Origin: Patescibacteria group bacterium | GTDB taxonomy: Bacteria; Patescibacteriota; Minisyncoccia; Phycocordibacterales; UBA2100 | NCBI GenBank assembly: GCA_038064535.1 | Contig: JBBTSX010000005.1 | Location: 13,051-77,050 of the forward strand | Length of the DNA stretch: 64,000 nucleotides | Direction of reading: 5' to 3' | Shown: one piece after another, positions 1,699 to 61,878 of the stretch | Numbering within the stretch: position 1 is the stretch's first letter | How the letters are laid out: every line of letters starts with the position of its first letter | Notes under the pieces: generated by a model | Databases searched by the model: none | Seen by the model: only the letters and a program-made list of their open reading frames with translations | What the model was told of the DNA's origin: nothing | Program-made: the position numbers and the translations under genes

Positions 1699-1796
1699 CC
1701 CCGTTAGAAGCCTTTTACAATCAAGTTCAACGGAGCGAATCGGAATATCAGAGCATATAATAAAAAACTATGGCGCGTAGAGCTTCTAACGGGGCA
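1699..1796. repeat. palindromic intergenic element, copy 1 (arms GCCCCGTTAGAAGC / GCTTCTAACGGGGC) between uvrD and rsmA; the loop contains the rsmA start codon
   Basis: Exact 14-nt inverted arms read directly; element family present at least 8 times in the window. Confidence 0.85.
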
Positions 1797-2585
1797 AGAC
1801 TCGGACAGCACTTCTTGAAACACGGCTGGGCCGCGCGTTCGCTCGCATACGCCGCCGCCATCCGTGATGGAGAAACATTTCTTGAAATAGGTCCCGGCAA
1901 GGGAATCCTGACCAAAGAACTGCTCACTCTCGGGCCTGTCGTCGCAGTAGAGAAAGACGAAATGCTCGTCGGACAATTGAAAGAAACTTTTGCCGAGGAC
2001 ATTGCGAGCGGGCGGTTGCGACTCGTTGCCGGCGACGTGCGCGATGCGACGCCGGAGAATCTCGGGCTTACCAAGTATGTGGTGGCGGCGAATATTCCGT
2101 ACTACATCACCGGTGAAATTATCCGGCAATTTCTGACGACTACGATACAACCGCGCGCCATGGCACTGCTTGTGCAAAAAGAGGTTGCACAACGTATCAT
2201 CGGTCACCCCTCGACTGCGCTCGGGGTCACGAAAGAGAGTATTCTCTCTCTTTCCGTGAAAGCGTACGGCACACCGCGACTTGTGGAAAAAGTTTCGCGC
2301 ACGCATTTCTCACCGCCGCCCTCGGTTGATTCTGCGATACTCGCCATCACTGACATCTCGAAAAAATTCTTTGACACCATATCGGAAGAAGACTTCTTCC
2401 GTGTGGTGCGCGCGGGATTTGCTTCCAAAAGAAAGATGCTTGCGAACAATCTCTCGGTGATATTCGATAAAGCTCGCGTGAACGAGTCACTACTCGCGTG
2501 CGACATCTCTGCGAAAGCACGGGCGGAGAATGTGCCGCTTGAGAAGTGGAAATCTATAACTCAACTACTGCTCGGTCACAGATAA
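1770..2585 (+). CDS. rsmA: 16S rRNA (adenine1518/1519-N6)-dimethyltransferase RsmA/KsgA
   Basis: LGQHFL and ANIPYYIT motifs with Rossmann GPGKG. N-terminal ARRASNGAR is an unusual extension encoded by a palindromic repeat arm. Confidence 0.9.
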   Translation: MARRASNGARLGQHFLKHGWAARSLAYAAAIRDGETFLEIGPGKGILTKELLTLGPVVAVEKDEMLVGQLKETFAEDIASGRLRLVAGDVRDATPENLGLTKYVVAANIPYYITGEIIRQFLTTTIQPRAMALLVQKEVAQRIIGHPSTALGVTKESILSLSVKAYGTPRLVEKVSRTHFSPPPSVDSAILAITDISKKFFDTISEEDFFRVVRAGFASKRKMLANNLSVIFDKARVNESLLACDISAKARAENVPLEKWKSITQLLLGHR

Positions 2586-2711
2586 TTTCCTCGCCGTCGC
2601 GGGAAAAACATATGGCTCGGCTACAACTCTCGCCGCGCCGTCGCGCGGCTCGGTCGCAGCCCCACCTCGCGGCGCCGCAAGCTTGCGGCGCATCGCTCCG
2701 GTCGACAAGCC

Positions 2712-2745
2712 AAGTACAAAAAGCTGCGCAGGCAGCTTTTTGTTA
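2712..2745. terminator. bidirectional terminator-like palindrome CAAAAAGCTGCGCAGGCAGCTTTTTG
   Basis: Perfect hairpin with flanking A and T runs between rsmA (+) and the small minus-strand gene. Confidence 0.55.
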
Positions 2746-3057
2746 CTGGCTTGTCCCAAGCATCGTAATCATGATGCCGGCACGGACGTCGATGGGAAGA
2801 ATTGAGATAATGCAGTAGTAGGGCGCCCCCGCGAGGCCGAGAAGCCACTGACCCGCGTGCGTCGGCGGACCGTTTTTGTACGTCTTTGTCGACGGCGTCC
2901 ATATGTACACGCCGCCGCGCGGCGGGCCGACGTAGGCGATGATGGCGTTGTTGTAGCAGGGGGAAACTTGCGAGGCTTGGCCGCCGAACGGGAAGGCAAG
3001 CGCGAGTGCGGGGAAGAGAAGGGTCACTATCGCGACTGCTGTAGCCGGTGCACGCAT
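2743..3057 (-). CDS. small hypothetical secreted protein (signal peptide MRAPATAVAIVTLLFPALALA)
   Basis: ORF 2743..3084; start re-picked at the internal Met preceding a signal-peptide-like segment. No recognisable homology. Confidence 0.35.
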   Translation of the reverse strand: MRAPATAVAIVTLLFPALALAFPFGGQASQVSPCYNNAIIAYVGPPRGGVYIWTPSTKTYKNGPPTHAGQWLLGLAGAPYYCIISILPIDVRAGIMITMLGTSQ

Positions 3058-3123
3058 GCATGTAGTATACGGTATTTCAGACACGGCGCGTGGTCTTGCG
3101 AGGTATACTTATTCTATATATGG

Positions 3124-3246
3124 ACCCCGTTAGAAACCGCGGTCGCTCGGCGGCAATCCCGTTCCAGTCGAACAAACCTATACAAGTATGAGTGACTTTA
3201 ACGACCCGCAAGACTTTCGACCGCGACCTGTTTCTAACGGGGTGGG
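3124..3246. repeat. palindromic intergenic element, copy 2 (ACCCCGTTAGAAACC ... GTTTCTAACGGGGTG) enclosing the start of the 3188 gene
   Basis: Arm variant GAAAC; extended imperfect pairing CGCGGTCG/CGACCGCG inside. Confidence 0.8.
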
Positions 3247-4126
3247 ATGGGCACGCCTACACCCGTACCTATCCGCCCTGATTGCGGCGGGTGCGTTCCT
3301 TGTGTTCGGCATACTCGTGGTGGGGTACCGTGCATCACAACCGCAAGGTGGCAATCTGCAAGTGTGGGGAGGCGGACCGGACGCTTTCCTCAATCCGACA
3401 TCGTATGCACCCGGAGCTACGGTGGGCACACAAATAGAGACCATCGGCGGCGGGAACACGCCGGTATTCAGTGCCCTGCGTCCGCAACAGCAAACCGGCG
3501 AACAAAATGAGACAAGTGGAGGGTTTGATATTTCTCTGTTCATCGCGGGACTTTCTCAACCAAACGCGGACACCGCGGCGGCACCTGTTTCGGGCCGGCC
3601 GGATCTGAGTCTCGCGTATTCTTTCATTCCGAGCGGGCTGGTCGCGACGACGACACCCGGACCGAAGCGAAGCGCACTGCAGGAATCGCTCTATCAATAC
3701 GGCAACGATGTAGGCTCGTACATATCCACATACGAGGCCGCCGGCGCGAATACCGGACAGGTGCTCACGGACCAATTGAACGACCGGCAAAACCCGCAAA
3801 AAGCGCAGGCGGTGCGCGATATCGGCACGGCATTGCAGGCGGCCGGTAAAACCTTACAAGGAATCGAAGCCGTCCCTTCTATTGTGTCTTCGGCGCATAC
3901 CGCTCTCGCGGAGAGTTACATAGAAGCCGGTATCAAGCTCTCGCGCGTGCCCGACGCGCAGAGCGACCAAGACTTCATCACCGCTATACAGGACTACAAC
4001 ACCGCCGCCGAACGGCTCGGGCGCAACTACGTCGCGCTCGCGAACGTTTTCTCGGGTGCAGGTGTGAGATTTGCACCGCAGGACCCGGGGTCGGTGTTCA
4101 ATTTCTCCGGCAATGCCGGACTGTAG
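3188..4126 (+). CDS. hypothetical membrane-anchored protein, first gene of the plus-strand secreted-protein/T4SS-like cluster
   Basis: 312-aa ORF with an N-terminal TM helix (LSALIAAGAFLVFGILVVG). Its start is overlapped by a repeat arm; alternative GTG start near 3238. Confidence 0.55.
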   Translation: MSDFNDPQDFRPRPVSNGVGWARLHPYLSALIAAGAFLVFGILVVGYRASQPQGGNLQVWGGGPDAFLNPTSYAPGATVGTQIETIGGGNTPVFSALRPQQQTGEQNETSGGFDISLFIAGLSQPNADTAAAPVSGRPDLSLAYSFIPSGLVATTTPGPKRSALQESLYQYGNDVGSYISTYEAAGANTGQVLTDQLNDRQNPQKAQAVRDIGTALQAAGKTLQGIEAVPSIVSSAHTALAESYIEAGIKLSRVPDAQSDQDFITAIQDYNTAAERLGRNYVALANVFSGAGVRFAPQDPGSVFNFSGNAGL

Positions 4127-4264
4127 TCGAGAATCCGCGCAACAGGGGAGCGGGGCTCGCCCTGTGAGATAGATACTCGGGGCGCGCAAGCAAAACGATT
4201 CACTCTCCCATTCCGACTGGGCAAACACACGGAAACGCGTTATCTCACGGGGTATACTTGTACT

Positions 4265-5086
4265 GTGCGCGTACTGCAACAAATATTCCGGTCCCCGCTG
4301 GGTGTAACTGCCGCACTTTCCGTGGTGCTCTTGCTCGGCGTCTCGGTCTCCCAGATTTCCTCACTCATGCATCAGAACCGACAGGTGCTCGCATTTGTCG
4401 CCATACCGGCGGCACAGACAGCCGCGGCCGATGGTGCCGACTGGCAACAGGAAATGACATTACTCGGACTGAATACGGAAAACAATCCAGCAGCGACTTC
4501 GACGACCGACAGTATCGCAATGATCGGCCATATTGTAATCGCCGAGATGGTGGGGCAATACGCCGGCCTGCAGGATAGGGGAACGTACACCACGGAGACC
4601 GGACAAAACGCGTCCGCTGACATCGCCGCGAATCTCCGCGCGAACATTTTGTACAAAACATACTCGACGACCGACTTCAAAACAGACACGGACGTTTCCT
4701 ACGACCGCATGCTTACGTACCGGAGTGATTTGCGCGCGGCGCTCGCGCCGCTGTTACAAAACACCGGCGCGGAATTGGAACTGTACGGCAAATATATCGA
4801 AACCGCGGACACGAAGTATCTCGGCCAACTCTCCTCTGCGGCGGCAAATTACCGCGCGGCCGCGGAAGGCGCGGCCGCGCTCACCATCCCGCGCGACGCG
4901 GTAAATTATCACAAAGATATTCTGAACGCGATGGAGAAATTCTCCGCGACGCTTGACCAGATGGCGACGCATGCCGCGGACCCGCTCGCCTCCGCCGCGC
5001 TCTTGCGTACGTTCAACCAAGCCGAAACGGACATGTACACTTCGTTCAACGCGCTTTCCAATTATTACGGCCAGAAGACACCATGA
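4265..5086 (+). CDS. hypothetical secreted/membrane-anchored protein
   Basis: 273-aa ORF with an N-terminal hydrophobic segment. Stop TGA overlaps the ATG of the next palindromic element (ATGA). Confidence 0.5.
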   Translation: MRVLQQIFRSPLGVTAALSVVLLLGVSVSQISSLMHQNRQVLAFVAIPAAQTAAADGADWQQEMTLLGLNTENNPAATSTTDSIAMIGHIVIAEMVGQYAGLQDRGTYTTETGQNASADIAANLRANILYKTYSTTDFKTDTDVSYDRMLTYRSDLRAALAPLLQNTGAELELYGKYIETADTKYLGQLSSAAANYRAAAEGAAALTIPRDAVNYHKDILNAMEKFSATLDQMATHAADPLASAALLRTFNQAETDMYTSFNALSNYYGQKTP

Positions 5087-5220
5087 GCCCCGTTAGAAGT
5101 CAGAACCAGATACGCAATACCCCCGTACGACCCACGGGAGATACTGTAATGCAACATGGAGAGCAGCGGACAAAAAATAATTTACGGAATTATTTTTTGC
5201 CAATGACTTCTAACGGGGTG
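5087..5220. repeat. palindromic intergenic element, copy 3 (GCCCCGTTAGAAGT ... ACTTCTAACGGGGTG) between the 4265 and 5203 genes
   Basis: Arms exact over 13 nt; inner nested palindrome AAAAAATAATT-TACGG-AATTATTTTTT. Confidence 0.8.
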
Positions 5221-6849
5221 AGAATTCAAAGCGGCATACTCATAGCACTGTTTGTCCTTGCGCCCACGCTTGTTTTCGCGCAGTCCGACGGATCTTCGCC
5301 GTCGTTCTCGAGAGAGGGGGTGTTCGGCTGCAGCCAGACCGGTTCATATTCCATGTCGGTCGGCGCGCTCTCGGCGGTGGGCGGAGCTTTCGTGCCGGTC
5401 AACGACGCGGCGGTCACCTTGAATACCGGTTATCTCGTCTACAAGGAGTGCGTCCTGCGCGGCATTGTGGACAGAATGCGCGAAAATGCGACCGCAAATC
5501 TCCAACGACAAATCCTCGTCGCCTACCAACGCGGACGCAACGGCCAGCCGCTCTTTTCGCAGAGTATTCCGCTCGAATCCAGGGCCGTCGCTGACAAAGC
5601 GGTTCTCGACTACACGCAGAGCGGCCAATTCAACACTCTCAACCCGGCGCTCAGGCAAGCCGTTTCGCGTGCGGTGGTGCAAAACTACATGGCCGCGCGC
5701 AACAAGCCCAGCGCGGCGTACGGTTGCTCATACTCCGGCAATCTCAATTCCGTCTACAAAGGCAACCCCGATGGCGGAGCGTGGGCCGGACTCTCCGCAC
5801 TGCAAAATCCGGCGTGCGACCCGATATTTGCCTACGGCATCGCCAACGAGCAGGTCCTCGGCTCCGCCGCCTACGCGGTCAACAACATGCTCACGCGACT
5901 CGAGTGGGACAACGGCAACTATCCCATCATGGGCGTCGACGCGGACGGTAACCCCATCGTGCTCACTCCCGGCTACATCGTGGGGGAAAACGCTCTGCAG
6001 GCACTGCAGACCGGTTTCGACCAGCTCTCGCGGGCGAACGACATCGACCAAATGGTGGGCGCGCTGTTTGCCGGCATTACCTCACAGGTCATCGGCGACA
6101 ACAAAGGTCTCGTCGGTCTCACCAAGTCGACCGGCGGCATACCGAGCTACCTTGATCAGGTGGTGTCGCAGTCCGCGCAGGGACTCCGCAACAGCGCCAT
6201 CAACGCCGGCATCGGAATACTCGTGGCACAACAAAAAATCGAAAGCCAGATACTCGGCTTTGCAAAAATGATTCTCGACAAAATCAAAGCCATTTCGCAA
6301 GCGCTCCAAGTCAAAGAGAACGCCTGCTGGAAACTCGTCGTAAGTAGCGTCTGCTCGTCCTCGCTCGCCTCCGACAACACGTGTACGGATGACGGTGGTA
6401 GTAGGTACAAAGTGGCGACATCGACCTTCCAATTCACGCAAAAAGCGCTGGACGCGTCGCAAGTCGCCGCCTACCAGCGGGTGCACCAGCAGGTCGCGAG
6501 CTCGTCGCAAATCATTCTCACACAAATAAGCGTCCTCATCGCACAGCTCACTGACACATCGTCGTATACCGCCCAGCTCGCCGCGCTTCAGGCGCTCGAC
6601 AGGCTCGCCAACGATGGTATTGTATTCCACACGCCGCAGGACGTGACGAACGAGCAGAGCGCGGCCGGTACGCTCGTCGGTCAAAACGGCGGCTCGGGCA
6701 CGCTCGACCAGCTTGTCACCGACACCGTGGCGGCGTGGGCGGATTCGACCAACACCAAGACCGGATGGTGCAACGTCACCAGACAGCCAGTCGTGGATGC
6801 TTGGAAAGACTGTTGGAGAGAGGGGAGCACCTCATGCCTATGGCCGTAA
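5203..6849 (+). CDS. hypothetical large secreted protein (signal peptide MTSNGVRIQSGILIALFVLAPTLVFA)
   Basis: ORF track gives 5083..6849. The start is re-picked at 5203 because the first 40 codons lie inside a palindromic element and a signal peptide begins at 5203. Confidence 0.55.
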   Translation: MTSNGVRIQSGILIALFVLAPTLVFAQSDGSSPSFSREGVFGCSQTGSYSMSVGALSAVGGAFVPVNDAAVTLNTGYLVYKECVLRGIVDRMRENATANLQRQILVAYQRGRNGQPLFSQSIPLESRAVADKAVLDYTQSGQFNTLNPALRQAVSRAVVQNYMAARNKPSAAYGCSYSGNLNSVYKGNPDGGAWAGLSALQNPACDPIFAYGIANEQVLGSAAYAVNNMLTRLEWDNGNYPIMGVDADGNPIVLTPGYIVGENALQALQTGFDQLSRANDIDQMVGALFAGITSQVIGDNKGLVGLTKSTGGIPSYLDQVVSQSAQGLRNSAINAGIGILVAQQKIESQILGFAKMILDKIKAISQALQVKENACWKLVVSSVCSSSLASDNTCTDDGGSRYKVATSTFQFTQKALDASQVAAYQRVHQQVASSSQIILTQISVLIAQLTDTSSYTAQLAALQALDRLANDGIVFHTPQDVTNEQSAAGTLVGQNGGSGTLDQLVTDTVAAWADSTNTKTGWCNVTRQPVVDAWKDCWREGSTSCLWP

Positions 6850-9397: not shown

Positions 9398-10024
9398 ATG
9401 AACGACGACAAGGAATACGACGATTTGATAAAAGAGCAGTTCAAAAAACTGCCGCGCGTCGTGCAGGAAGCAATCGTGTCGGCCGACGTCGAGAAGCACC
9501 TGCGTGAGCTTGCGGAGACACATAAACTGCATCTCGACCAATGGACCGCTCTCGAAAACGAAGTGCAGATGACGCTTCTCGGCATCGACGATTCCGGCGA
9601 GCTCATGCAAAACATCAGAGACAAGGTGCACGTACCCGAAGAAACTGCAAAAGCACTCGTACAAAGTATCTCGGAGGTCGTATTCGAGCCAATCAGACAG
9701 GAGCTTGAGCGACAGCTGGAACATCCCGGTGCTGTCGCGAAGGCGACGAGCGGGGTGGAGGACATGCGCACACGCATCCTTGCCGACGCATCGGAAAATC
9801 AGCCGGTAGTCGTAAGCCTGCAGCCGGTAGAAAAAAAGAGTCCGGTTCCTGCTACTGGCTACGAGCTACAAGCCACGGGCTCCGTGGTAGCCGCCACACC
9901 ACCCGCACCCGCACCAACCGTGAAGGTGGAACGCGCTCCCGCCGCACCCCCCTCGTATGTTTCAGCGCCCAGTCACGAGCGAAAAACAGTAGAAGGGGAC
10001 CCGTATAGAGAACAAATCGAATAA
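9398..10024 (+). CDS. hypothetical acidic protein, T4SS-cluster associated
   Basis: 208-aa ORF in the same strand and cluster; Pro/Ala-rich C-terminus. Confidence 0.5.
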   Translation: MNDDKEYDDLIKEQFKKLPRVVQEAIVSADVEKHLRELAETHKLHLDQWTALENEVQMTLLGIDDSGELMQNIRDKVHVPEETAKALVQSISEVVFEPIRQELERQLEHPGAVAKATSGVEDMRTRILADASENQPVVVSLQPVEKKSPVPATGYELQATGSVVAATPPAPAPTVKVERAPAAPPSYVSAPSHERKTVEGDPYREQIE

Positions 10025-10065
10025 CAGCAGGGCCGCGTGCATGCGCTTGGTATACTTATAGAGCC

Positions 10066-10566
10066 ATGCAATTCCAAGTTCCTCAATTTATAGAAGTCGA
10101 AGACAAGATTTTCGGGCCCCTGACCTTCAGGCAGTTCATTTTTATCGCCGGAGGACTCGGAATGGCCTACGTACTGTGGCGATTACTGCCCATTTATTTC
10201 GCCGCGCCGCTCATCCTCGGGGTAGGAGCGCTCGCGGCGGCGCTTGCGTTCTTCCAATTCAACGGCCGCCCGTTTATCATCGCGCTTGAGAATGGTTTTT
10301 ACTACATAATCCGCTCGAAATTGTACCTTTGGAACAACGCTAACAAGAAACGGGCGGTGAAGACAGCCGCAGTCGCCACGAGGAACGATGTGTACATCCC
10401 CAAGATTTCCGACAGCAAACTGCATGAGCTCGCATGGAGCCTCGACATCAAAGAACGTATCGCCGCCGGCACCGCGGGGGACGACGAGCGCGGTAGCGCA
10501 CTCACCGGTGTCCGCACGCCAAAAGAAATCCTGTCGCACATGAGCACACGTACGGTCACGCAATAA
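10066..10566 (+). CDS. PrgI-like small membrane protein (VirB3 analogue of Gram-positive-type T4SS)
   Basis: N-terminus MQFQVPQFIEVEDKIFGPLTFRQFIFIAGG followed by two TM helices is typical of the PrgI family. Positioned just upstream of VirB4. Confidence 0.55.
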   Translation: MQFQVPQFIEVEDKIFGPLTFRQFIFIAGGLGMAYVLWRLLPIYFAAPLILGVGALAAALAFFQFNGRPFIIALENGFYYIIRSKLYLWNNANKKRAVKTAAVATRNDVYIPKISDSKLHELAWSLDIKERIAAGTAGDDERGSALTGVRTPKEILSHMSTRTVTQ

Positions 10567-10569
10567 CCT

Positions 10570-11238
10570 ATGGCAGAAACTCCAATCATGACGCCGCGCG
10601 CAAACGCCAAGTCGACACAGGACTTCGTGCCGATTTCCGAAGTACGCGATGGCGTCGTGGTCCTCAAAGACGGCGGACTGCGCGCGATCCTGCTCGCGTC
10701 GAGTATCAACTTCGCACTCAAGAGCGAGGATGAGCAAACCGCGTTCATCGTGCAATTCCAAAATTTCCTCAACTCTCTCGACTTTTCGGTGCAAATATTC
10801 GTGCAGTCGCGCATGCTGGACATCCGTCCGTACGTCGCGACACTCGAAGCCGCATACAAGGAACAGCTCGACGACCTCATGCGTATCCAAATCCGCGAAT
10901 ATATCGAATTCATCAAGAGTTTCACCGAGGCCGCCAATATCATGACGAAAAACTTCTTCGTCGTCGTGCCGTATTCGCCCGCGGTCATCACGAAGCGCGG
11001 TGGTGCAAGCGCGCTGAATCCGTTCGGCAAAAAACAGACGGCGAGCGAGGCAGACCACTCATTCGAGGAGCAGGTGTCCCAGCTCGAGCAACGCATATCT
11101 ATCGTCCAGCAGGGCCTCGTGCGTACCGGTGTGCGCACCGTGCAACTCGGTACCGAAGAAGCAATAGAGCTACTCTACAAAATGTTCAACCCCGGCGAGG
11201 AGGGAAAACCGATGCCCGTAGAGACAGGGAATAGGTGA
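10570..11238 (+). CDS. hypothetical T4SS-associated protein
   Basis: 222-aa ORF between the PrgI-like and VirB4 genes. Contains a FVPISEVRDGVVVLKDGGLRAILL motif reminiscent of T4SS assembly proteins. Confidence 0.5.
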   Translation: MAETPIMTPRANAKSTQDFVPISEVRDGVVVLKDGGLRAILLASSINFALKSEDEQTAFIVQFQNFLNSLDFSVQIFVQSRMLDIRPYVATLEAAYKEQLDDLMRIQIREYIEFIKSFTEAANIMTKNFFVVVPYSPAVITKRGGASALNPFGKKQTASEADHSFEEQVSQLEQRISIVQQGLVRTGVRTVQLGTEEAIELLYKMFNPGEEGKPMPVETGNR

Positions 11239-11319
11239 TAGGGATTAGGGAATAGTAAAATACAATACACCACCATGCCCTCACTACAACCTACAACCTA
11301 CAACCTATAACCTATTCCT

Positions 11320-13239
11320 ATGGCATTCAGCGACCTTCTTCCGTTCAAGAAAAAAACCGCCGCAGGACCGGATATTTTGCCGGTACTACCCGAAGAAATC
11401 TACCAGACGGGGGTACTCGACCTGCAAGACGTCATCGCGCCGCACGCGCTCAAAGTAAACTCGCGCGAACTCGACTTGGGCGAGAAAATCGCGCGCACCT
11501 TCTTCGTCATCTCATACCCCAGATTCCTCACGACGGGATGGTTTGCCCCCATCATCAACATGGACAAGGTCATCGACATCTCCATCTTCGTACACCCGAT
11601 GGATACCAATGAAATGCTCCGTAAATTCCAGAAAAAAGTCGCCGAGGTGCAGAGCCAGATTTCGACACGCGAGCAGAAGGGGATGGTCCGCGACCCGATG
11701 CTCGACACGGCGTACTCCGACCTCGAACAGTTGCGCGACAGCCTTCAACAGGCGCAGGAGCGCATTTTTGACGTCGGACTCTATCTCACCATCTACGGCA
11801 ACACGCGCGAGGAAATCGACAAAGTGGAGAGCGATGTACGTTCCATTCTCGAGTCGCGTCTCGTGTACATCCGACCCGCGCTCTTCCAGCAGGAACAGGG
11901 CTTCCGCTCCGTCCTGCCGCTGTGCACCGACGAGCTCGACGTGCACACGAAGCTCAATTCCGCGCCGCTCTCGTCCATCTTTCCGTTCATCTCGTTCGAC
12001 CTCACGTCGGACCGCGGCATTCTCTACGGCATCAACCGTCACAATTCGTCTCTGATTCTCTTCGACCGTTTCTCGCTCGAAAACTATAACTCCGTGACAT
12101 TCGCAAAATCCGGCGCCGGCAAAAGCTACACGACAAAACTCGAGATTTTGCGCTCTCTCATGTTTGATACCGAGGTCATCGTCATCGACCCCGAGCGCGA
12201 ATACGAATACCTCGCCGAGACCGTCGGCGGGCGCTACTTCAACATTTCGCTTTCCTCCGAGCACCACATTAATCCTTTCGACCTCGCCATTCCGCGCGAA
12301 GATGAAAATCCGAGCGACGTGCTACGCAACAACATCATCACGCTCGTGGGGCTCTTCCGCATCATGCTCGGCGGGCTCACGCCGGAGGAAGACGCTGTTA
12401 TCGACAAGGCGATAACGGAAACCTACGCGCTCAAAGACATCACCTCGGATACCAACTTCGCGCAGGTCGAGCCGCCGCTTCTCTCCGACTTCGAGCTTGT
12501 ACTCTCCGGCATGGAAGGGAGCGAATCTCTCGTGCAACGTCTCTCCAAATACACCAAGGGCACGTGGTCGGGATTCATGAACCGCCCGACCAATGTTGAC
12601 ATGAACAAAAAACTCGTCGTCTTCTCGGTGCGCGACATGGAAGACGACCTCAAGCCGGTCGCGATGTACATCATTACGCACCACATCTGGAATCAGGTGC
12701 GCAAAGAGCTCCGCAAGCGCCTCCTCGTCATCGACGAGGCGTGGTGGATGATGCGTAGCGAAGACACCGCGTCGTTCCTCTTCTCCATCGCAAAGCGCGG
12801 CCGCAAATACTACCTCGGCATTTCGACCATCACGCAGGACGTCTCGGACTTCTTGAATTCCCCGTACGGTATCCCGATGATAACCAACTCTTCCATCCAG
12901 CTTCTTTTGCGTCAGTCACCGACATCGGTCGACCTTGTGCAGAGCACGTTCAAACTCTCCGACGAGGAGAAATACCTACTGCTCGAGAGTGACGTGGGGG
13001 AGGGCATATTCTTCGCCGGTCTCAAGCACGTCGCGCTCAAGGTCATCGCCTCGTATACCGAAGACCAAATCATCACCTCGGACCCGTCGCAAATTCTCGC
13101 AATCAAAAAAGCGAAGCAGGATCTCGAAAAATCGAGTGATGTCCCTGCGCCGGTGCGCCCCATCGCTCCTCACGCGCCGGGTACCGACACCGCGCCCGCG
13201 CCGCAAGCTCCTTCAAGCAACGCCTTACGGGAGGTATGA
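11320..13239 (+). CDS. virB4: type IV secretion ATPase VirB4/TraC/PrgJ-like
   Basis: Walker A AKSGAGKSYTT. Gram-positive VirB4 N-domain pattern KIARTFFVISYPRFLTTGWFAPIINMDKVIDISIFVHP. Walker B-like LLVIDEAWWMM. Confidence 0.85.
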   Translation: MAFSDLLPFKKKTAAGPDILPVLPEEIYQTGVLDLQDVIAPHALKVNSRELDLGEKIARTFFVISYPRFLTTGWFAPIINMDKVIDISIFVHPMDTNEMLRKFQKKVAEVQSQISTREQKGMVRDPMLDTAYSDLEQLRDSLQQAQERIFDVGLYLTIYGNTREEIDKVESDVRSILESRLVYIRPALFQQEQGFRSVLPLCTDELDVHTKLNSAPLSSIFPFISFDLTSDRGILYGINRHNSSLILFDRFSLENYNSVTFAKSGAGKSYTTKLEILRSLMFDTEVIVIDPEREYEYLAETVGGRYFNISLSSEHHINPFDLAIPREDENPSDVLRNNIITLVGLFRIMLGGLTPEEDAVIDKAITETYALKDITSDTNFAQVEPPLLSDFELVLSGMEGSESLVQRLSKYTKGTWSGFMNRPTNVDMNKKLVVFSVRDMEDDLKPVAMYIITHHIWNQVRKELRKRLLVIDEAWWMMRSEDTASFLFSIAKRGRKYYLGISTITQDVSDFLNSPYGIPMITNSSIQLLLRQSPTSVDLVQSTFKLSDEEKYLLLESDVGEGIFFAGLKHVALKVIASYTEDQIITSDPSQILAIKKAKQDLEKSSDVPAPVRPIAPHAPGTDTAPAPQAPSSNALREV

Positions 13240-14282
13240 AACGGCTCGCGCTCGCAGTCGTTGTTATCGTATGCGCGGTCGCTCCCGCGTATCTGCCCGC
13301 GCAGGCGCGCGCCCAGTTCTCGATTCCGGGCGCGGAAAGCGTTCTCTCTATTTCGTTCTCTCCACAGTATCCGGCCCCGCAGAGCACTGTCAGACTCACT
13401 CTGCAGAGTTCGCTGTACGACCTCGGCTCGAGCTCTGTTACATGGACGGTCAACGGGCAAGAGGTGGCTCAAGGAGACGCGGTAACGTTCATCGACGTGA
13501 AGACAGGCTCGCTCGGAAGCAAGACCGAGGTACAGGCCGACATCACAAGTGCGGGCGGCACGGCTTTTGCTACCGCGACCGTGGTTCCGACCTCCATCGA
13601 CCTCCTGTGGGAATCCGACTCGTACGTCCCTCCTTTTTACAACGGTCGCGCACTGCCGTCCGCGGGTTCTCGCGTGCACCTTGTCGCGCTCACACATTTT
13701 GTGCGTCCGGACGGCGGAGAAATCCCCGCGAACCAGATTGTTTTCACATGGACAAGGGATAGCGAAGTTCTGGGCAACCTCTCCGGCCGCGGTAAATCAT
13801 CGATAACAGTCGACGGACCGACCCTCTTCGGAACGGAGACGATTGTAGTGGAAGCGGCGTCCGTCGACGGAAGCATTGCGGGGCAGGCACTTCTGCGCAT
13901 TCCCGATACGGAGCCGAGGCTTATGCTGTACGAAGACCATCCGCTGTTCGGGGTGCTCTACCATCAGGCGCTTGGCGTCACCACGTTCGTGCCGAAAAAC
14001 GAAATGTCGTTCATCGCAATTCCGTACTTCGCCTCCGCCGTCTCCTCCGGCGACACGGGTTTGCAATACGAGTGGCAGGTCAATCAAAGTTCCGTCACCA
14101 CCAACGCGGCGTACAGCAACGAAATAACCGTCAACGCCGCCTCGTCTACCGGACTTATGGCACTCATCAATCTCTCGCTCACGCATGTGTCGAATTATTT
14201 CCTGAGTGCTGCGGGCTCGTGGAGCGTTACGTTCAACAAGAGTAGCGCCGGTTCATCCGGCGGGGACGTCTTTCATCAATAA
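13236..14282 (+). CDS. hypothetical secreted protein (signal peptide)
   Basis: 348-aa ORF, ATGA overlap with virB4. N-terminal MKRLALAVVVIVCAVAPAYLPAQA. Confidence 0.55.
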   Translation: MKRLALAVVVIVCAVAPAYLPAQARAQFSIPGAESVLSISFSPQYPAPQSTVRLTLQSSLYDLGSSSVTWTVNGQEVAQGDAVTFIDVKTGSLGSKTEVQADITSAGGTAFATATVVPTSIDLLWESDSYVPPFYNGRALPSAGSRVHLVALTHFVRPDGGEIPANQIVFTWTRDSEVLGNLSGRGKSSITVDGPTLFGTETIVVEAASVDGSIAGQALLRIPDTEPRLMLYEDHPLFGVLYHQALGVTTFVPKNEMSFIAIPYFASAVSSGDTGLQYEWQVNQSSVTTNAAYSNEITVNAASSTGLMALINLSLTHVSNYFLSAAGSWSVTFNKSSAGSSGGDVFHQ

Positions 14283-14288
14283 CGTCGT

Positions 14289-15506
14289 ATGCCAGCTTCA
14301 CACCATTTATTCAGGTACGCGGTTGCCGCCGTCATCGTGATGGTGCTCGGTGGGCTTCTCGGTTGGTATGTATTTGTGCGTTCGCAGGTCAGGACGACAC
14401 AGGCAAACGACAGCGCGCGCGGCTTCGGCACGGCCGCATCGTTCGGGTCGCCTGCAGGAAGCACGTACACAAACTCCGCCGGGTCTGTTCCTTCGACTGA
14501 CATACAGTCCGCGTCCGGTAATCCGGCGCCGCGTCTCTGGAAAGTAACCGCGACGCCGGTTGCCGGTGCGGGCTTTGCCGCGTCTTCGACCCAACTGTAC
14601 TTCGCCGAGCGTTCGTCGGGCAATGTCTTACTCGCGGACCCGTCCGTATCCTCGGTGACCCGCCTCACGAATACATTGTTCCCGAAGGTATACGACGCGC
14701 TATTCGCATCCGACGGCTCCGTCTTGCTCCGCTCGGCGACGGACGCGGGCATTGTCACCACCTACGCCGGCACGATAAGCACGACGACTGCCGAGGGTCC
14801 CGTACCGCTCGCCGGTACCTATTTGCCGCAACACATCAAAGCGGTGAGCGTGCGCTCTCCGCAACAACTGTTCTTTCTCGTGGCTACGCCCACGGGCGGC
14901 ACTGCCGGTGTCACGGCAAATTGGAAGGGTGCGTCGCAAAAACCCGTCTTCGCTTCCACGCTACAGCAATGGCGTGTGTGGTGGCTCTCCGACGGACGCA
15001 TGTATGTCGCGCAACAGCCGTCCGACGGTATCATGGGGTACGCATTCACGCTCAAGGGTGGCGCACTGCAAAGCCTCGTGAGCGCCCCCGGTCTCTCGAT
15101 ATTGCCGCGCACCGGTTCTACCGCGCTCATCTACAGCAGTTCGGCCGGCGGCGTAAACCTGTTCGGGCAGACTTCGGCAAGCACCACGCCGGTGCGGTTT
15201 ACCGTTCGTACTCTTGCCGAGAAGTGTGTCTGGGCCCCCGGCAAAGATCTCGTTGCCTACTGTGCAGTGCCGCAGGTTCTGCCTACGAGAGCCGGTTATA
15301 TGGAAGAATGGTACCGCGGCGCGACGCACACGTCGGATGCGTGGTGGAAGGTAGACGTATCCGCCGGCACCGCACAAAGCCTGTTCACACCTGACTCCGG
15401 CACCTCGTTCGACGTTGAGCGTCCTGCCATTGACGGCAACGGCAGTTATATCGCTTTCATGAACGCCGCCGACAAATCACTCTGGATGCTTCGCATAACA
15501 CCATGA
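14289..15506 (+). CDS. hypothetical membrane-anchored extracellular protein
   Basis: 405-aa ORF with one N-terminal TM helix; overlaps the next gene by 4 nt. Confidence 0.55.
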   Translation: MPASHHLFRYAVAAVIVMVLGGLLGWYVFVRSQVRTTQANDSARGFGTAASFGSPAGSTYTNSAGSVPSTDIQSASGNPAPRLWKVTATPVAGAGFAASSTQLYFAERSSGNVLLADPSVSSVTRLTNTLFPKVYDALFASDGSVLLRSATDAGIVTTYAGTISTTTAEGPVPLAGTYLPQHIKAVSVRSPQQLFFLVATPTGGTAGVTANWKGASQKPVFASTLQQWRVWWLSDGRMYVAQQPSDGIMGYAFTLKGGALQSLVSAPGLSILPRTGSTALIYSSSAGGVNLFGQTSASTTPVRFTVRTLAEKCVWAPGKDLVAYCAVPQVLPTRAGYMEEWYRGATHTSDAWWKVDVSAGTAQSLFTPDSGTSFDVERPAIDGNGSYIAFMNAADKSLWMLRITP

Positions 15507-15928
15507 CATCGCTTCGTTCACACGTTCGTGTCGCCCTCGCGTTACTCGCGTTTTGTATCGTATTCGTCGCCGCGGCTGTACACGCAGAGGCACCGCTGTG
15601 CGACGGGAAGGGTTTCTGTGCGCTTGCGATTCCTCCCACCTCGTCAAAACTGGGACAGCTCTATGGCACGACAAGCCTCGCCGGATTTCTCAACGGCCTC
15701 TTTACCGCCGCAATTTCCATCGGCGCGATACTCGCGGTGCTCAGAATTGCCTACGCGGGATATGAATACATGACGAGCGATGCGTGGGGGAACAAAGCGC
15801 GCGCAAAAGAAATCATCGGTGACGTTGTCCTCGGATTGATGCTCCTCCTCGGCACGTACCTGATTCTCAACCAAATCAATCCGCAACTGCTCAACTTAAA
15901 TATTCTGCAAAACCTCGGGGGCAAGTAG
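15503..15928 (+). CDS. T4SS pilin-like small protein (signal peptide plus two TM helices)
   Basis: 141 aa with a cleavable signal peptide, a conserved Cys pair and two hydrophobic helices. Architecture matches conjugative/CPR-type T4SS pilins. Confidence 0.45.
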   Translation: MTSLRSHVRVALALLAFCIVFVAAAVHAEAPLCDGKGFCALAIPPTSSKLGQLYGTTSLAGFLNGLFTAAISIGAILAVLRIAYAGYEYMTSDAWGNKARAKEIIGDVVLGLMLLLGTYLILNQINPQLLNLNILQNLGGK

Positions 15929-16437: not shown

Positions 16438-16488
16438 AAAAAATTGTTGTCCCACCGAGAGTCGCTCCGGGGAGCTTCTAACGGGGTC
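16406..16488. repeat. palindromic intergenic element, copy 4 (ACCCCGTTAGAAGCT ... AGCTTCTAACGGGGT) between yidC and jag, enclosing the jag start
   Basis: 18-nt perfect arms including the ATG/CAT. Confidence 0.85.
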
Positions 16489-16532
16489 CATTGGGGCACT
16501 ATACGCTATTTTCCCGCGCCGTGCGAATACCC

Positions 16533-38531: not shown

Positions 38532-38566
38532 CGAGCCCGATAGCAGGCGCAAGGGGCTTTGCCTGC

Positions 38567-45800: not shown

Positions 45801-45900
45801 ACCCCGTTAGAAGCTCACGCGAGGCATTGGTTCTGCGTCCGCAATCTTTTTGCGTTCATCCCCGCGGCAAGCAGTGGGGCGCCCTGCTTCTAACGGGGTA
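45801..45900. repeat. palindromic intergenic element, copy 7 (ACCCCGTTAGAAGCTC ... CTGCTTCTAACGGGGTA) between the two Gly-run paralogs
   Basis: Starts immediately after the TAA stop of the 44499 gene. Confidence 0.85.
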
Positions 45901-45946
45901 AAAGAAGTTCTCTGTATACAACAGGGTACGTTGCACTCCCGCGGGC

Positions 45947-47671
45947 GTGCTACTATTTAGTGACATGAGTACGGTGCACAAAGTTGCTCTAGGCACATTT
46001 CTCGTTTTTGGTTTCGCGCTAACGGCATTTGCCCTCCTGCCGGTCTCGGTCACTGCGCAAAATCTCGGCAGTCCCGAGGACATCCGCTGCGTGAAAGAGT
46101 GCGCGGTCGCCGCGTCGAAGAAAAAACCGTGTCCCACGCCCACGAAAATTGTGTGTCATGTTACGGTAAACGGCGGCACTTCTTTCGGGTTTTGCATGCC
46201 CAACGGCTGCAAGGCAACGGGCTATGGTGGCGGCGGGGGAGGTTCGGGCAACGTCGGACTCGACTTGATCAAGCAGGTTCTCGGCAGTCTGATGCAAAAA
46301 CTCATGCAAGGGGGTCAGGGAAGTGGAAGCGGCAGTGGAAGCGGTTCGGGTTCGGGCGGCACCCCCATAAACACGACTCAGCCGACCTGCTCGCTTACGT
46401 CCACGACAGACTCTACCGACGCCTCAAGTACAAAAGCGACACTATCGTGGACATCTTCATATGATGTGACAAGCGCAACAATCAGTCCGGACATTGGTTC
46501 TGTCTCGCCGAATGGTTCCCAACAGGTTACCGTCACAAGTGCCCTCGGCATCTACAGTATGACGGTGACGGGGCCCGGCGGAACGGGGGCATGCTACAAA
46601 ACCATTTCCGGTCCCGGCGGCGGAGGTGAGTGCGATGCCGTCAGTCAGGCGCTGGGTCTGTGCGGAGGAGGTGGTGGAGGTGCGGACACTACGACGGGGG
46701 ATTTGAGTGTCGAAACCTCGACGGGCGAAGTGCCGTTCCAGGCGGTGTTCTCGGTATCCGCCGGTGCATGCCGAACGGCCGATCTGTTGCTCAACTACGG
46801 CGACGGAAGTTCTCCCGTGACGGTGTTTGTGGCGAATGAGACAACCATGCCCGGCACGTGCACGGGCGACTCCATTTCCGCTTCGCCGGAGCACGCGTAT
46901 CACAATCCCGGCTCGTACACGGCAGAGCTCACTAATTCCGTAAGCCGCGCTTCGGTATCGTCGGTCAACATCACGGCGACTACTCCCGCCAATTCCTCAA
47001 ATAACAACAATGGAAGAACGATTACATCTACACCGAGCAGCACTCTACCGGTCATCGTGCCGCAGGGCGTGATACAAGGACTTACGTCGGGTGTGAGCGG
47101 CGATATCCGGATACTCGGAAACAGCGGGACGATTCTCGCGGGTTCGGTGGACCCGGGAGGCAACAGTGTCACTGCCGGTTTCTTCGGCTCCAACACCTTC
47201 ACCGGCCAGCCGACCGGAGTCATCGCTAATCTTTGCAAGAGCCGTCCGTGGGCGGGCAATATCCTCTCGTACATCCTTCCGGCGACATTCTTTGACAGCC
47301 TGTGCGTGCTGCGCGGCTATCAGGTGGGTACGCCGAAGCCGGCCGCCCCGACCGTCACCGTATTCCAAAGTGCACCCAAAAAAGTGACGAAGACACCCGT
47401 CGCGACGACGACACCCGCCGTCCCACCGAAAGTCGATATCTGGGCGGTGCCCTCTTCCGTGCCCTTGGGCTCGCGCACGTCGGTATTCTGGAGTTCGCAG
47501 GGCGTGACGAACTGCACCGAAACATCACCCGACGGTAGCTTCTCGCAGAACACGCTCTCCGGCGGCGCTTCTACGGTCGCTCTCACCGGCGCGACGACGT
47601 TTACGATGTCCTGCATCGCTCCCGACGGCTCACACGTGACGGACTACGTGACGGTGAACCTCTCGATCTAG
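45947..47671 (+). CDS. secreted Cys-containing protein with Gly/Ser run, family member 2 (tandem paralog)
   Basis: GLDLIKQVLGSLMQKLMQGG then (GS)n. C-terminal LCKSRPWAGNILSYILPATFFDSLCVLRGYQVG... matches the previous gene. Confidence 0.6.
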   Translation: MLLFSDMSTVHKVALGTFLVFGFALTAFALLPVSVTAQNLGSPEDIRCVKECAVAASKKKPCPTPTKIVCHVTVNGGTSFGFCMPNGCKATGYGGGGGGSGNVGLDLIKQVLGSLMQKLMQGGQGSGSGSGSGSGSGGTPINTTQPTCSLTSTTDSTDASSTKATLSWTSSYDVTSATISPDIGSVSPNGSQQVTVTSALGIYSMTVTGPGGTGACYKTISGPGGGGECDAVSQALGLCGGGGGGADTTTGDLSVETSTGEVPFQAVFSVSAGACRTADLLLNYGDGSSPVTVFVANETTMPGTCTGDSISASPEHAYHNPGSYTAELTNSVSRASVSSVNITATTPANSSNNNNGRTITSTPSSTLPVIVPQGVIQGLTSGVSGDIRILGNSGTILAGSVDPGGNSVTAGFFGSNTFTGQPTGVIANLCKSRPWAGNILSYILPATFFDSLCVLRGYQVGTPKPAAPTVTVFQSAPKKVTKTPVATTTPAVPPKVDIWAVPSSVPLGSRTSVFWSSQGVTNCTETSPDGSFSQNTLSGGASTVALTGATTFTMSCIAPDGSHVTDYVTVNLSI

Positions 47672-55506: not shown

Positions 55507-55540
55507 ATAACAAACTTGTCCGACCGGACGAGTTTGTTAT
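55507..55540. repeat. 34-bp palindromic repeat ATAACAAACTTGTCCGACCGGACGAGTTTGTTAT, left copy flanking the PaaX-like gene
   Basis: Near-identical copy at 56150-56183 (one mismatch). Confidence 0.8.
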
Positions 55541-55554: not shown

Positions 55555-56145
55555 ATGGGCATTGAGAAGCGGGTGGCCGTGCGCGCTCGCAGGGGCGAGA
55601 TCAAAAATGCCGTTCTTCAAGTTGCAGCTCTCGCTGGGTTACTTTCTATTGCTTTTGTCGCCCCCAATGTGCCAAAAGTTATTCCACGAAGCCTGCTTAA
55701 TAAGGTGTTTGGTCGCTCGCGGAGTGCAAGAGACGTGACCGTGAGTCGTTTGCTGAAGGATGGATTGCTTGCGGTGGAAATGCGCGATGGTACGCGGATG
55801 TTACGCATAACCGAGAAAGGGAAGCGATATCTCGCAAAAACAAAGTTACGCGCCGCGAATGTGCCGCGGCGGTGGGACCGTCGATGGCGCGTTGTCATAT
55901 TCGACATCAAGGAGCATAGGCGGCATGTTCGTAGGAATTTAAGAAGTGAGCTTCAGGCGTATGGATTCTACCGATTGCAGGACAGCGTATGGGTGTTCCC
56001 ATATGCGTGTGAGGATTTTATCGCGCTTCTCAAGGCCGACCTACATGTCGGAAAGGATATTTTGTATCTTGTGGCCGAGGAGGTCGAAAACGAGCGTCAT
56101 TTGAGAGATTATTTTGGCATAGGAACTGGCGGCCGCTCTGCATGA
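55555..56145 (+). CDS. PaaX-family-like transcriptional regulator
   Basis: C-terminal WDRRWRVVIFDIKEHRRHVRRNLRSELQAYGFYRLQDSVWVFP resembles the PaaX_C fold. Start re-picked at MGIEKR inside ORF 55291..56145. Confidence 0.55.
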   Translation: MGIEKRVAVRARRGEIKNAVLQVAALAGLLSIAFVAPNVPKVIPRSLLNKVFGRSRSARDVTVSRLLKDGLLAVEMRDGTRMLRITEKGKRYLAKTKLRAANVPRRWDRRWRVVIFDIKEHRRHVRRNLRSELQAYGFYRLQDSVWVFPYACEDFIALLKADLHVGKDILYLVAEEVENERHLRDYFGIGTGGRSA

Positions 56146-56149
56146 GGAA

Positions 56150-56183
56150 ATAACAAACTTGTCCGACCGGACAAGTTTGTTAT
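56150..56183. repeat. 34-bp palindromic repeat ATAACAAACTTGTCCGACCGGACAAGTTTGTTAT, right copy
   Basis: Perfect 14-bp arms; direct repeat of 55507-55540. Confidence 0.8.
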
Positions 56184-60257: not shown

Positions 60258-60261
60258 CACG

Positions 60262-60406: not shown

Positions 60407-60407
60407 T

Positions 60408-60746
60408 ATGCATTCTTTTACCGGTATTGTTCAACGGAGCTCAAAGCGGGCGACTGCACTTGGATATCCGACGGTGAACATTCCCTTGGGCGACGATTCT
60501 TCCGGCGTGTATGCGGCACGTGTTTTTGTCGACGACCGAGTCTACCGTGCGGCGGCATTTGCCGACCCGAAGCGCAAAATACTCGAAGCGCACATCGTGG
60601 ATTTCGAGGGTGACTTGTACAACAAAGAGGTAACTATTGAGCTTGTAAGGAAACTCCGTGATACGCAGACATTTGATACAGACGCAAAATTGCGGACGGC
60701 AATAGCGGACGACATTGCAAAAGTCCGGGAATACTTTAAGAATTGA
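60408..60746 (+). CDS. riboflavin kinase (stand-alone RibF C-terminal-domain homolog)
   Basis: ALGYPTVNI ... EAHIVDFEGDLYNKEVTIELVRKLRDTQTFD pattern of the riboflavin kinase domain; 112 aa. Confidence 0.7.
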   Translation: MHSFTGIVQRSSKRATALGYPTVNIPLGDDSSGVYAARVFVDDRVYRAAAFADPKRKILEAHIVDFEGDLYNKEVTIELVRKLRDTQTFDTDAKLRTAIADDIAKVREYFKN

Positions 60747-60749
60747 GCA

Positions 60750-61331
60750 ATGTTTACCGGAATCGTTGAGCGACAGGGCCGAATACGCGCTGTTTCGGGC
60801 ATCAAGAACAAGCGCTTTACGGTAGAGAAACCGGTTTCTTGGAAGTTGAAGACAGGTGCCAGCGTCGCCGTCGACGGCATCTGCGTGACGGTAACGTCTC
60901 ATACAAAGAATTCGTTTTCGTGCGACCTGATGCCCGAAACGCTCTCACGTACAACTGCGAGACAATTCCGTGTCGGCGCTACGGTGAATCTCGAACGGCC
61001 GTTAAAACTCGGCGACGAGCTCGGCGGGCACATCGTGCTCGGGCATGTTGATGTGCGGGGAAAGATTATGCGAGTCTACAAACGCGGCACTGCGCGCGAA
61101 GCGACCGTTTCAGTTCCGGCACGTTTTATGCGACTCGTAGCTGAAAAAGGCTCAATCGTTCTCAACGGAGTCTCGCTCACCGTATCAAAGAAGCAACGGA
61201 ACACGTTTGCGGTCGCGCTCATTCCGCACACACTCAAGGCGACGAACCTCGGTTCATTGCAGAAAGGTGACGGGGTAAATGTCGAATTTGACGCGACAAT
61301 GCGATATCTGGCAGCACGCAAAAAAAAGTGA
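60750..61331 (+). CDS. ribE: riboflavin synthase (alpha subunit)
   Basis: MFTGIVE... internal duplication with GHIVLGHVD / NGVSLTV lumazine-binding repeats. Confidence 0.85.
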   Translation: MFTGIVERQGRIRAVSGIKNKRFTVEKPVSWKLKTGASVAVDGICVTVTSHTKNSFSCDLMPETLSRTTARQFRVGATVNLERPLKLGDELGGHIVLGHVDVRGKIMRVYKRGTAREATVSVPARFMRLVAEKGSIVLNGVSLTVSKKQRNTFAVALIPHTLKATNLGSLQKGDGVNVEFDATMRYLAARKKK

Positions 61332-61343
61332 TACCGTGCGCTC

Positions 61344-61808
61344 ATGCAACGCAAAGAATTTCTGAAAAAAACAGCACCGCGCGATGCCTCGAAACTCAGC
61401 ATCGGCATCGTTGTCGCGGAATTCAACCCTGATATCACGGGAAGTTTGTTCGAGGGTGCCTTGAAAGCGCTCAAAGAGTGGGGCGTAAAGGAACGCAATA
61501 TCAATATATTTCGCGTGTACGGCTCGTTTGACCTCACGTACGGGTGTGACCTCATGTTTCGCAAGCATAAGCCGGATGCGGTAGTCGCACTCGGTTGCAT
61601 CATCAAAGGGGAGACCAATCACGACCACTACATTGCTTCGGCCTTGTCGCACGGACTTACCGGCCTCGCCATCAAGTACGGCAAGCCCGTTTCGTTCGGC
61701 GTTATCACGACCAATAATCTCGCGCAGGCAAAAGCGCGTTCGCGCGGCAAGACAAATCACGGCGAGAAGGCCGCTGTCGCCGCGCTCCAGGCGGCACTTT
61801 TGAAGTAG
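61344..61808 (+). CDS. ribH: 6,7-dimethyl-8-ribityllumazine synthase
   Basis: [20 protein letters not shown] ... [17 protein letters not shown] typical RibH. Confidence 0.88.
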
Positions 61809-61816
61809 ACATGACC

Positions 61817-61878
61817 CGCCCCGTTAGAGGCCCGCAAAGAGGCAGTCGCCAACGGCGACTTGCCTCTAACGGGGCCCG
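61817..61878. repeat. palindromic intergenic element, copy 8 (CGCCCCGTTAGAGGCC ... GCCTCTAACGGGGCCCG) between ribH and the nucleotidyltransferase gene; inner stem GCAGTCGCC-AACG-GCGACTTGC
   Basis: Arm variant AGAGGC; continuous about 28-bp hairpin. Confidence 0.85.

Follow-up and report, generated by a model that had tools for sequence, protein, structure and literature searches.

Short elements with 13-bp inverted ends at start and stop codons of Patescibacteria genes: a probable family of miniature non-autonomous transposons

Prokaryotic MITEs (miniature transposable elements with inverted repeats), such as the Correia elements of Neisseria, RUP, ERIC and MITEAba12, are small, encode no transposase, and carry terminal inverted repeats (TIRs) flanked by a duplication of the target site; they occur in many copies, are found at gene junctions, and their transcripts form hairpins. 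REP sequences and their inverted pairs, the REPINs, are also short, palindromic, abundant and located at gene junctions; they make no target duplication, are lineage-specific and accompany the gene of a REP-associated tyrosine transposase (RAYT). The Rickettsia palindromic elements (RPEs) are restricted to Rickettsia, are about 150 bp long, encode a conserved peptide and are inserted at internal positions. The piggyBac transposon has ends of 13 bp (CCCTAGAAAGATA). It duplicates the 4-bp sequence TTAA, with TAAA and TCAA as rare variants, and IS1380 is its prokaryotic relative (PMC10813416). According to the pertinent parts of a 2024 review, RPEs are palindromic mini-elements tolerated in protein-coding genes as in-frame additions, and the ends of Correia elements are RNase III substrates; MITEs, in-frame palindromic insertions and RNase III-cleaved MITE ends are already known (PMC10969869). 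Here we describe a family of short elements with conserved inverted arms, of which nine copies (E0 to E8) are present in 64,000 nucleotides of a Patescibacteria group bacterium (assembly GCA_038064535.1, contig JBBTSX010000005.1, positions 13,051 to 77,050), a stretch hereafter referred to as the window. These copies are very probably miniature non-autonomous DNA transposons, that is, MITEs, because they have TIRs, a fixed 4-bp target duplication, sites that are empty in relatives, multiple copies, and a small size without a transposase gene.

An earlier inspection of the letters alone (the sequence-only reading) had listed eight arm pairs, and all of them are there, with coordinates off by 1-3 nt only. 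It had also placed a solo arm at 38150; the arm exists, but it belongs to a degenerate compact copy, E0 (38149-38186), and is not solo. The arms exceed the number expected by chance, a point that the same inspection had proposed to verify: with up to two mismatches, the arm 12-mer occurs 19 times in the window where 4.2 are expected, none of 100 shuffled sequences reaches 19, and the paired pattern CCCCGTTAGAA-N50-80-TTCTAACGGGG is found four times with none expected. The arm length, given before as about 14 nt, had to be corrected: the TIRs are exactly 13 bp long, have a sharp boundary, and consist of CCCCGTTAGA (positions 1-10, invariant) and three bases (positions 11-13) that vary from copy to copy and are matched within each. 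In a genome scan for paired arms (one genome per species, at least 120 loci), exactly 13 arm bases were matched in 87 of 164 copies, the ends read CCCC in 97-100% of the arms, and the logo of the arm and its flank was (G)TNNA-CCCCGTTAGAA(R)(T) among the matches listed. Positions 11, 12 and 13 were matched in 96, 87 and 81% of the cases, compared with 77, 55 and 34% expected, in agreement with the previous remark that arm variants keep their complementarity. The copies measure 29-310 nt, their interiors ranging between 3 and about 280 bp, and no long open reading frame (ORF) is present in the longest. A core shared by the interiors had been considered; those in the window all differ, and no direct repeats were found at the boundary between arm and interior.

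The target duplication is a mark of insertion. Of the 158 paired copies among the matches listed for the genome loci, 94 have the same four bases repeated directly on both sides, just 7 show an inverted flank match, and the direct repeat never reaches five bases. An independent metagenome scan, queried with one end of the largest subfamily only, gave 121 copies; the partner end was present in 117, and the 4-bp flanks were identical in 99 of 116. The sole unpaired metagenome copy (L221) reflects a 1-nt deletion. When all the paired elements of the metagenome loci are counted, 118 of 144 have the duplication, which is TAAA/TTTA in 110 of those 118. In the mechanism that we propose, a transposase supplied in trans would recognize the ends and cut the target with a 4-nt stagger, so that insertion would duplicate a YNNR tetranucleotide, mostly TNNA, and the interior could be almost any sequence placed between the two 13-bp ends.

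The genome of the window falls in Paceibacterota/Kaiserbacteria, within the Candidate Phyla Radiation (CPR), and comparison with related contigs of that group revealed occupied and empty versions of the same sites. E4 (16407-16486, 80 nt) lies one base into the start codon of jag, on the minus strand (ATG 16491-16489), between TCCA at 16403-16406 and at 16487-16490. Contigs L122, L123 and L125, whose YidC proteins are 93%, 83% and 82% identical to that of the window, lack exactly the 80-nt element and one TGGA (84 nt); their jag genes start with CAATGGAC-GCG, CCATGGTC-GCG and CAATGGAA-GCA, respectively, and the L122 product has 157 aa, equal to that of the window after excision of E4. E1 (1699-1794, 96 nt) is located inside the 5' end of rsmA, after codon 5 and within codon 6. 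Contigs L131 and L132, whose RsmA is 81% identical, are syntenic over 20.8 kb and contain no arms, nor does a further 13 kb of syntenic relative sequence. The empty E1 site in L131 reads ATG ACG AGA CGC GGG G-CAAG-A CTC (MTRRGARLGQHF), and the RsmA homologue P0124 starts MTRRGARLGQHFL, exactly as predicted by excision of E1 in silico; the homologues P0121 and P0122 (95% and 87% identity) start MARRASNGARLGQ and share the insertion. E2 (3125-3242, 118 nt) is one base into the start codon (ATG 3120-3122) of the gene for a 312-aa protein, with TGGA at 3121-3124 and TGGG at 3243-3246, and its empty site in L131 is TATA-TGGA-ATGGGCG. E3 (5088-5218, 131 nt) is one base into the ATG at 5083 of a secreted-protein gene, between two TGAG (5084-5087 and 5219-5222), and L131 has there CCA-TGAG-AATTCAC, which encodes MRIHSGILIAL. 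The copies of this genome are recent arrivals relative to its sister lineages, and rsmA, jag, two genes for secreted proteins and one for a cytidylyltransferase now include them in their 5' ends.

The last of these genes, which is FAD-synthase-like, carries E8 (61819-61874, 56 nt) after ATGACCCG, four bases in, with CCCG at 61815-61818 and 61875-61878. At the protein level, 119 homologues were compared: 76 begin as expected for an empty site, with the N-terminus that excision of E8 would give, and the insertion is present in 8. In four lineages a copy occupies this position and shares one rare arm variant, GGC; the duplications, matched on the two sides in every case, are CCCG, CGCG, CGCG and CACG, and two of the interiors are unrelated to the others. 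This could be the result of repeated entry at a post-start hot spot, of cycles of excision and re-entry, or of a homogenising process. The ends that are kept complementary, together with what would be repeated entry after the ATG of one gene with matched duplications each time, hint at something other than a classical MITE and at real site targeting by an enzyme, a reading that we hold only tentatively.

The remaining copies complete the set. E7 (45802-45898, 97 nt) is placed exactly on the TAA stop of the ORF at 44499-45800, and its duplication, TAAA at 45798-45801 and 45899-45902, includes the stop codon of this upstream gene. The E7 subfamily is common to metagenome-assembled genomes (MAGs) of Saccharibacteria and Parcubacteria. 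A same-strain contig (L256, GCA_964357015.1), 99.99% identical to the window, has a second copy of the E7 type, about 80% identical, at another TAAA site; the 9 kb that it adds beyond the window contain one copy of the family. E5 (38433-38531, 99 nt) has a strong inner hairpin and lies in the intergenic region upstream of ruvB, as do the compact degenerate copies E0 (TCCCGTTAGATGGCTT gaaat AAGCCTATCTAATGGGA) and E6 (38566-38596; CCCCGTTGGAAGC gaa GCTTTCCAACCGGGG), which has an indel in one arm. Finally, a right-arm-like sequence at 4243-4258, TCTCACGGGG followed by TATAC, is a possible remnant of a copy; at this site an intact copy flanked by a TATA duplication is present in the relative L130.

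All the copies had been regarded as intergenic, which proved incorrect, given that E1, E2, E3, E4 and E8 are inside the first codons and E7 is on a stop codon. The same inspection had nevertheless called attention to start codons, and in this it pointed to what we consider the most interesting feature of the family. The duplication starts at the T of the ATG in E2, E3 and E4. This position was evaluated in 88 copies with a duplication and in matched control sites, a start being counted when the ATG opens at least 80 codons. The duplication begins at the T of such an ATG in 15 of 88 copies, compared with 2.2% of the control sites; ATG, GTG and TTG occur in a 15:1:1 ratio in the insertions and 177:152:137 in the controls. 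A stop codon falls within the duplication in 12 of 88 copies, compared with 3.1% of the controls. The offset profiles are narrow: 11 copies are at +1 relative to the start, no upstream offset has more than 4, and only 3 in all are found from +2 to +45; for stops, 12 copies are exactly on the stop codon (d=0), and all other offsets have at most 4. The stop-codon peak is repeated in the metagenome subfamily (19 of 94 sites). Insertions at start codons are found chiefly in CPR genomes, in which the duplicated TGNA very often consists of the TG of the start codon and the two bases that follow it; Desulfobacterota copies mostly have a stop codon within their duplicated TAAA. Part of this pattern must be due to the survival of harmless insertions in spacer-poor genomes. 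The excess at one offset over neighbouring offsets that would be equally harmless suggests some target preference as well; enzyme targeting and selective survival probably both contribute.

Each insertion likely affects the translation of its gene. An element inserted in a start codon would keep the native ribosome-binding region and the ATG at its left, and two routes to the gene can be proposed from there. In the first, ribosomes would translate across the whole element, since neither arm has a stop in the frame concerned: after a +1 insertion the sequence is ATG NAC CCC GTT AGA ... TCT AAC GGG GTG NA, and the arms encode the peptide PVR(S/N) ... SNG(V/A). Consistent with this route, E3, E4 and E8 add 135, 84 and 60 nt (45, 28 and 20 codons, duplicate included) without stops and give in-frame N-terminal additions; the E8-bearing protein starts MTRPVRG, and in E8 carriers the arm-encoded residues persist in old copies with changed interiors. 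Counted over 142 copies, the element length plus four is divisible by three in 63 (p about 0.02). In the second route, translation would terminate within the element and begin again at an in-frame ATG close to its right end. E1 and E2 break the frame (100 and 122 nt), and in both the ORF of the old ATG ends at or just after an in-frame ATG provided by the element. For E1, the old start (ATG 1679-1681) overlaps the stop of uvrD/pcrA and opens an upstream ORF (1679-1780; stop TAG 1778-1780) that runs past the new in-frame ATG at 1770; for E2, the stop of the upstream ORF (TGA 3189-3191) overlaps the new ATG at 3188, forming ATGA (3188-3191). E3 also contains an in-frame ATG, at 5203. We infer termination-reinitiation, in which the translating ribosome would open the stem. 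Of 18 start-proximal insertions, all keep some route to translation: 11 have an interior in-frame ATG, compared with 1 of 18 when the element is flipped and a background of 16.7% (p=2.8e-5), and the other seven use in-frame read-through (3), an ATG regenerated at the junction by a T..A end variant (2) or a newly created GTG (2). Sigma-70-like sites are no commoner in the elements than in shuffled sequences, and hence we make no claim of element-borne promoters.

The family had been taken for a genome-specific REP/MITE-like one. The MITE part of this proposal is borne out by the TIRs, the 4-bp duplication and the empty sites, whereas the family is not genome-specific, because the same ends occur across many phyla. 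Among the matches listed, the 11-mer of the ends is present in MAGs labelled as more than a dozen phyla, including many Patescibacteria classes, Planctomycetota, Nitrospirota, Nitrospinota, Omnitrophota, Desulfobacterota and Thermodesulfobacteriota (with the complete genome CP113000.1), Elusimicrobia, KSB1, Cloacimonadota, Clostridia, Gammaproteobacteria and others. Signs of mobility are also found at the level of single genomes: nested and tandem copies are present, and MAG DX4.bin27 has four near-identical copies at different places, with a related copy in a second MAG. In IMG/VR one contig matches (L121), a Mu-like phage encoding MuA, MuB, Gam and GemA, with three copies in its early region (3245-3990), one of them of the minimal 29 nt; because such a phage carries three copies, phages could ferry the family between hosts. 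The Mu-like transposase was considered as the enzyme of the family and rejected, as it does not fit a 4-bp duplication. No plasmid in PLSDB matches the element. In the Desulfobacterota subfamily (metagenome loci L133-L252) two sizes, 95 and 40 nt, are equally common, and the shorter one seems to have arisen from the longer by deletion between two internal GCGGGGCATTA repeats. In a Parcubacteria MAG, a short copy (L020, 6507-6554) is found about 20 nt upstream of a 23S rRNA gene.

Several observations weigh against the MITE interpretation. Neither a transposase nor an autonomous element was found on searching the window, the adjoining 9 kb and about 1.45 Mb of sequence surrounding some 290 copies. 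The search for a RAYT or another transposase that had been recommended was thus negative in the regions examined, and so were the narrower searches: no transposase emerged when all ORFs of the loci were clustered and the recurrent or neighbouring ones compared with Pfam, nor from the ORFs next to solo or clustered arms or the partners of solo arms, and neither end pairs 0.3-4 kb apart with matching duplications nor the one-ended metagenome scan gave an autonomous element. In addition, 110 of 145 interiors are unrelated to one another, a pattern not usually seen when a MITE family has been amplified from one master copy; arm positions 1 and 11-13 co-vary, which would not be predicted for a transposase that binds each double-stranded end independently; and four window copies lack a clean duplication, since that of E1 has diverged (CCCG / CAAG), the flanks of E5 (AGCA / CGAG) do not match, and E0 and E6 are degenerate, with no recognizable duplication for E0. 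The breadth of the distribution also depends on MAG taxonomy as labelled by the submitters, which was taken as given.

The least improbable alternative is movement in the form of a folded single strand, whose two arms would pair into a 13-bp stem that the enzyme recognizes by its structure, in the manner of integron attC sites or IS200/IS605 ends; the family would then be a mobile element of another kind than a classical DDE cut-and-paste MITE. We consider this improbable. The co-variation at positions 11-13 extends to the terminal base pair, which changes from C..G to T..A in L036, L053, L259 and L260; the arms end sharply at 13 bp, and the interior is free in sequence and can be as short as 3 nt. 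The E2 orthologue in L130 differs at 19 positions, all in the central 64 nt, the two 27-nt stem halves being identical, and no DDE transposase was found in the flanks examined; the complementarity of the two ends may indicate a hairpin-dependent mechanism. Against it, the family makes an exact 4-bp duplication, and to our knowledge structure-recognizing systems (HUH Y1 transposases, integron integrases) produce none. Arm co-variation could also come from mismatch correction in hairpins extruded during replication, and no candidate enzyme was found for this mode of movement either. A "guide" role of arm positions 11-13 in specifying the target was considered as well and discarded, as no association was found.

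It is less probable still that the hairpins are primarily regulatory structures of the host, either RNase III sites or stems of a regulon that sequester start codons, with their spread being secondary; the sequence-only reading had offered this as an origin of the family. All the copies do fold into closed hairpins (z = -3.8 to -7.0), because their ends are inverted, and several contain start codons. The conservation of the E2 stem over its loop and the persistence of arm-encoded residues in old E8 copies could be read in the same way. Between strains, E1 and E3 are as similar as their mosaic flanks, and the E2 stem alone stands out; RNase III cleavage of MITE ends is documented for the Correia elements of Neisseria in the corresponding part of the 2024 review (PMC10969869). 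However, close relatives have the rsmA, jag, secreted-protein and cytidylyltransferase genes without the element, the affected genes are functionally unrelated, the same ends are present in many phyla, at stop codons and in a phage, and the 4-bp duplication is a mark of insertion. Rfam gave only tRNAs and rRNA, both for the window at gathering thresholds and for eight loci at E<=1.

The likeness to REP/REPIN elements maintained by a RAYT is superficial, and we regard this origin as very unlikely. The inverted pairs with a spacer at gene junctions resemble REPIN doublets, but none of the three REP features mentioned above holds here: REPs make no target duplication and are lineage-specific, whereas this family has a duplication and the same sequence in many phyla; moreover, a single arm is not palindromic, and the flanks examined gave no Y1 transposase. 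Segments that carry a promoter or a start and are inverted by a site-specific recombinase would explain why inverted repeats bracket short start-codon-bearing segments beside genes, some of them for surface or secreted proteins, yet they can practically be dismissed, since 15 of 15 orthologous copies in independent assemblies share the same orientation, interiors are as short as 3-30 nt, duplications and empty sites exist, no recombinase is nearby and promoter-like sites are not enriched over shuffles. Integron attC sites have similarly short conserved inverted cores around a variable centre of 20-100 nt and keep complementarity rather than sequence; they were rejected because the core order is reversed (GTT...AAC here, AAC...GTT in attC, R''(RYYYAAC)...R'(GTTRRRY)), the neighbours are core genes, the target is duplicated and no integrase is nearby.

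As MITEs, the elements described here depart from the characterized families in several respects. Their ends are identical in MAGs of more than a dozen labelled phyla, whereas each of the other families is found in one genus or family; their interiors are almost all unrelated, and no parent insertion sequence is known; the duplication is of 4 bp, and that of Correia is TA; and the copies are exactly on start or stop codons with a built-in in-frame ATG. RPEs share with E3, E4 and E8 the property of being in-frame additions, but this family is inserted at the stop codon or within the first codons, conservation is limited to the arms, and the out-of-frame copies E1 and E2 would be rescued by restart. 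The resemblance to piggyBac/IS1380, namely a 4-bp duplication and ends starting with CCC/CC, is no more than a lead. TTAA accounts for just 2-3 of the 94 duplications, TAAA/TTTA and TGAA being dominant, and the one IS1380 member compared, ISEcp1, with ends CCTAGATTCTACGT, has in common with this family only CC and a TAGA-like core; no piggyBac/IS1380-type DDE/DDD transposase was found in any flank examined.

In the literature, a search with the arm string retrieved unrelated primers only and no description of this sequence; no bacterial MITE family with identical ends across many phyla was found, nor one placed on start and stop codons with a built-in restart codon. The portions of a MITE survey (PMC11602168) and of the 2024 review (PMC10969869) reached by topic terms, rather than by the arm sequence, contain neither start-codon insertion nor IS1380, and those of the review do not mention start codons at all. 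It is conceivable, though we hold it only tentatively, that these elements represent an undescribed superfamily of mini-transposons that is present in many phyla, homes to start and stop codons, brings its own outward start codon and is tolerated even by essential genes in the streamlined genomes of CPR bacteria; start codons would then be truly targeted, by an enzyme of possibly new type. CPR genomes are nearly devoid of intergenic space and can nevertheless be invaded; mobile DNA would be using the start or stop codon as a safe harbour, and should the preference for start codons lie in the enzyme, the transposase would make an unusual tool for targeting. The identical 10-nt ends point to an enzyme that is widely shared or highly mobile, and may serve as a marker of DNA exchange in groundwater and sediment communities. 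For the host genes, the insertions make new N-termini and small upstream reading frames. There are practical consequences for annotation, since starts beside the element are called inconsistently (the same cytidylyltransferase appears with 133, 157 or 165 aa), and N-terminal extensions such as PVR...SNG are transposon-derived.

Other features of the window were observed in the course of this analysis. The genes flanking E7 (44499-45800 and 45947-47671) are adjacent paralogues whose secreted products contain poly-Gly/Gly-Ser runs and match nothing in Pfam; these two Gly-rich proteins had been considered as transposases and were discarded as secreted paralogues. In the spacer upstream of ruvB (38190-38430) there is an imperfect inverted repeat of 24 nt (38292-38315 / 38389-38412); this spacer shows no convincing ORF, matches nothing in Rfam and may be an unannotated RNA. 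Next to jag, a type IV secretion-like cluster (9398-15928; PrgI-like protein, TraG/VirB4-like ATPase, type IV secretion system pilin) adjoins the jag-yidC-rnpA-dnaA origin region; it is kept in L125 and L131, and in L131 it includes an extra bAvd-like gene, for an accessory protein of diversity-generating retroelements. Between rnpA and yidC, L123 (9076-9819) and L124 (686-1429), with YidC of 83% identity, have an extra 247-aa ORF with no Pfam match, which is present neither in the window nor in other relatives. Between rnpA and dnaA, in the replication-origin region, the window has a perfect 23-nt inverted repeat with a 56-nt spacer (17831-17853 / 17910-17932) that has no relation to the family. 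Another near-perfect palindrome, of 34 nt (ATAACAAACTTGTCCG nn CGGACAAGTTTGTTAT), occurs twice, at 55507-55540 and 56150-56183; the PaaX_M-domain gene seen in L256 corresponds to about 55555-56145, between the two copies, and these look like operator sites of the PaaX_M regulator. Lastly, a perfect 42-bp palindrome (62282-62323; TAATTCCCGTATTTGTTGCTA-TAGCAACAAATACGGGAATTA) extends from the stop codon of the cytidylyltransferase gene.

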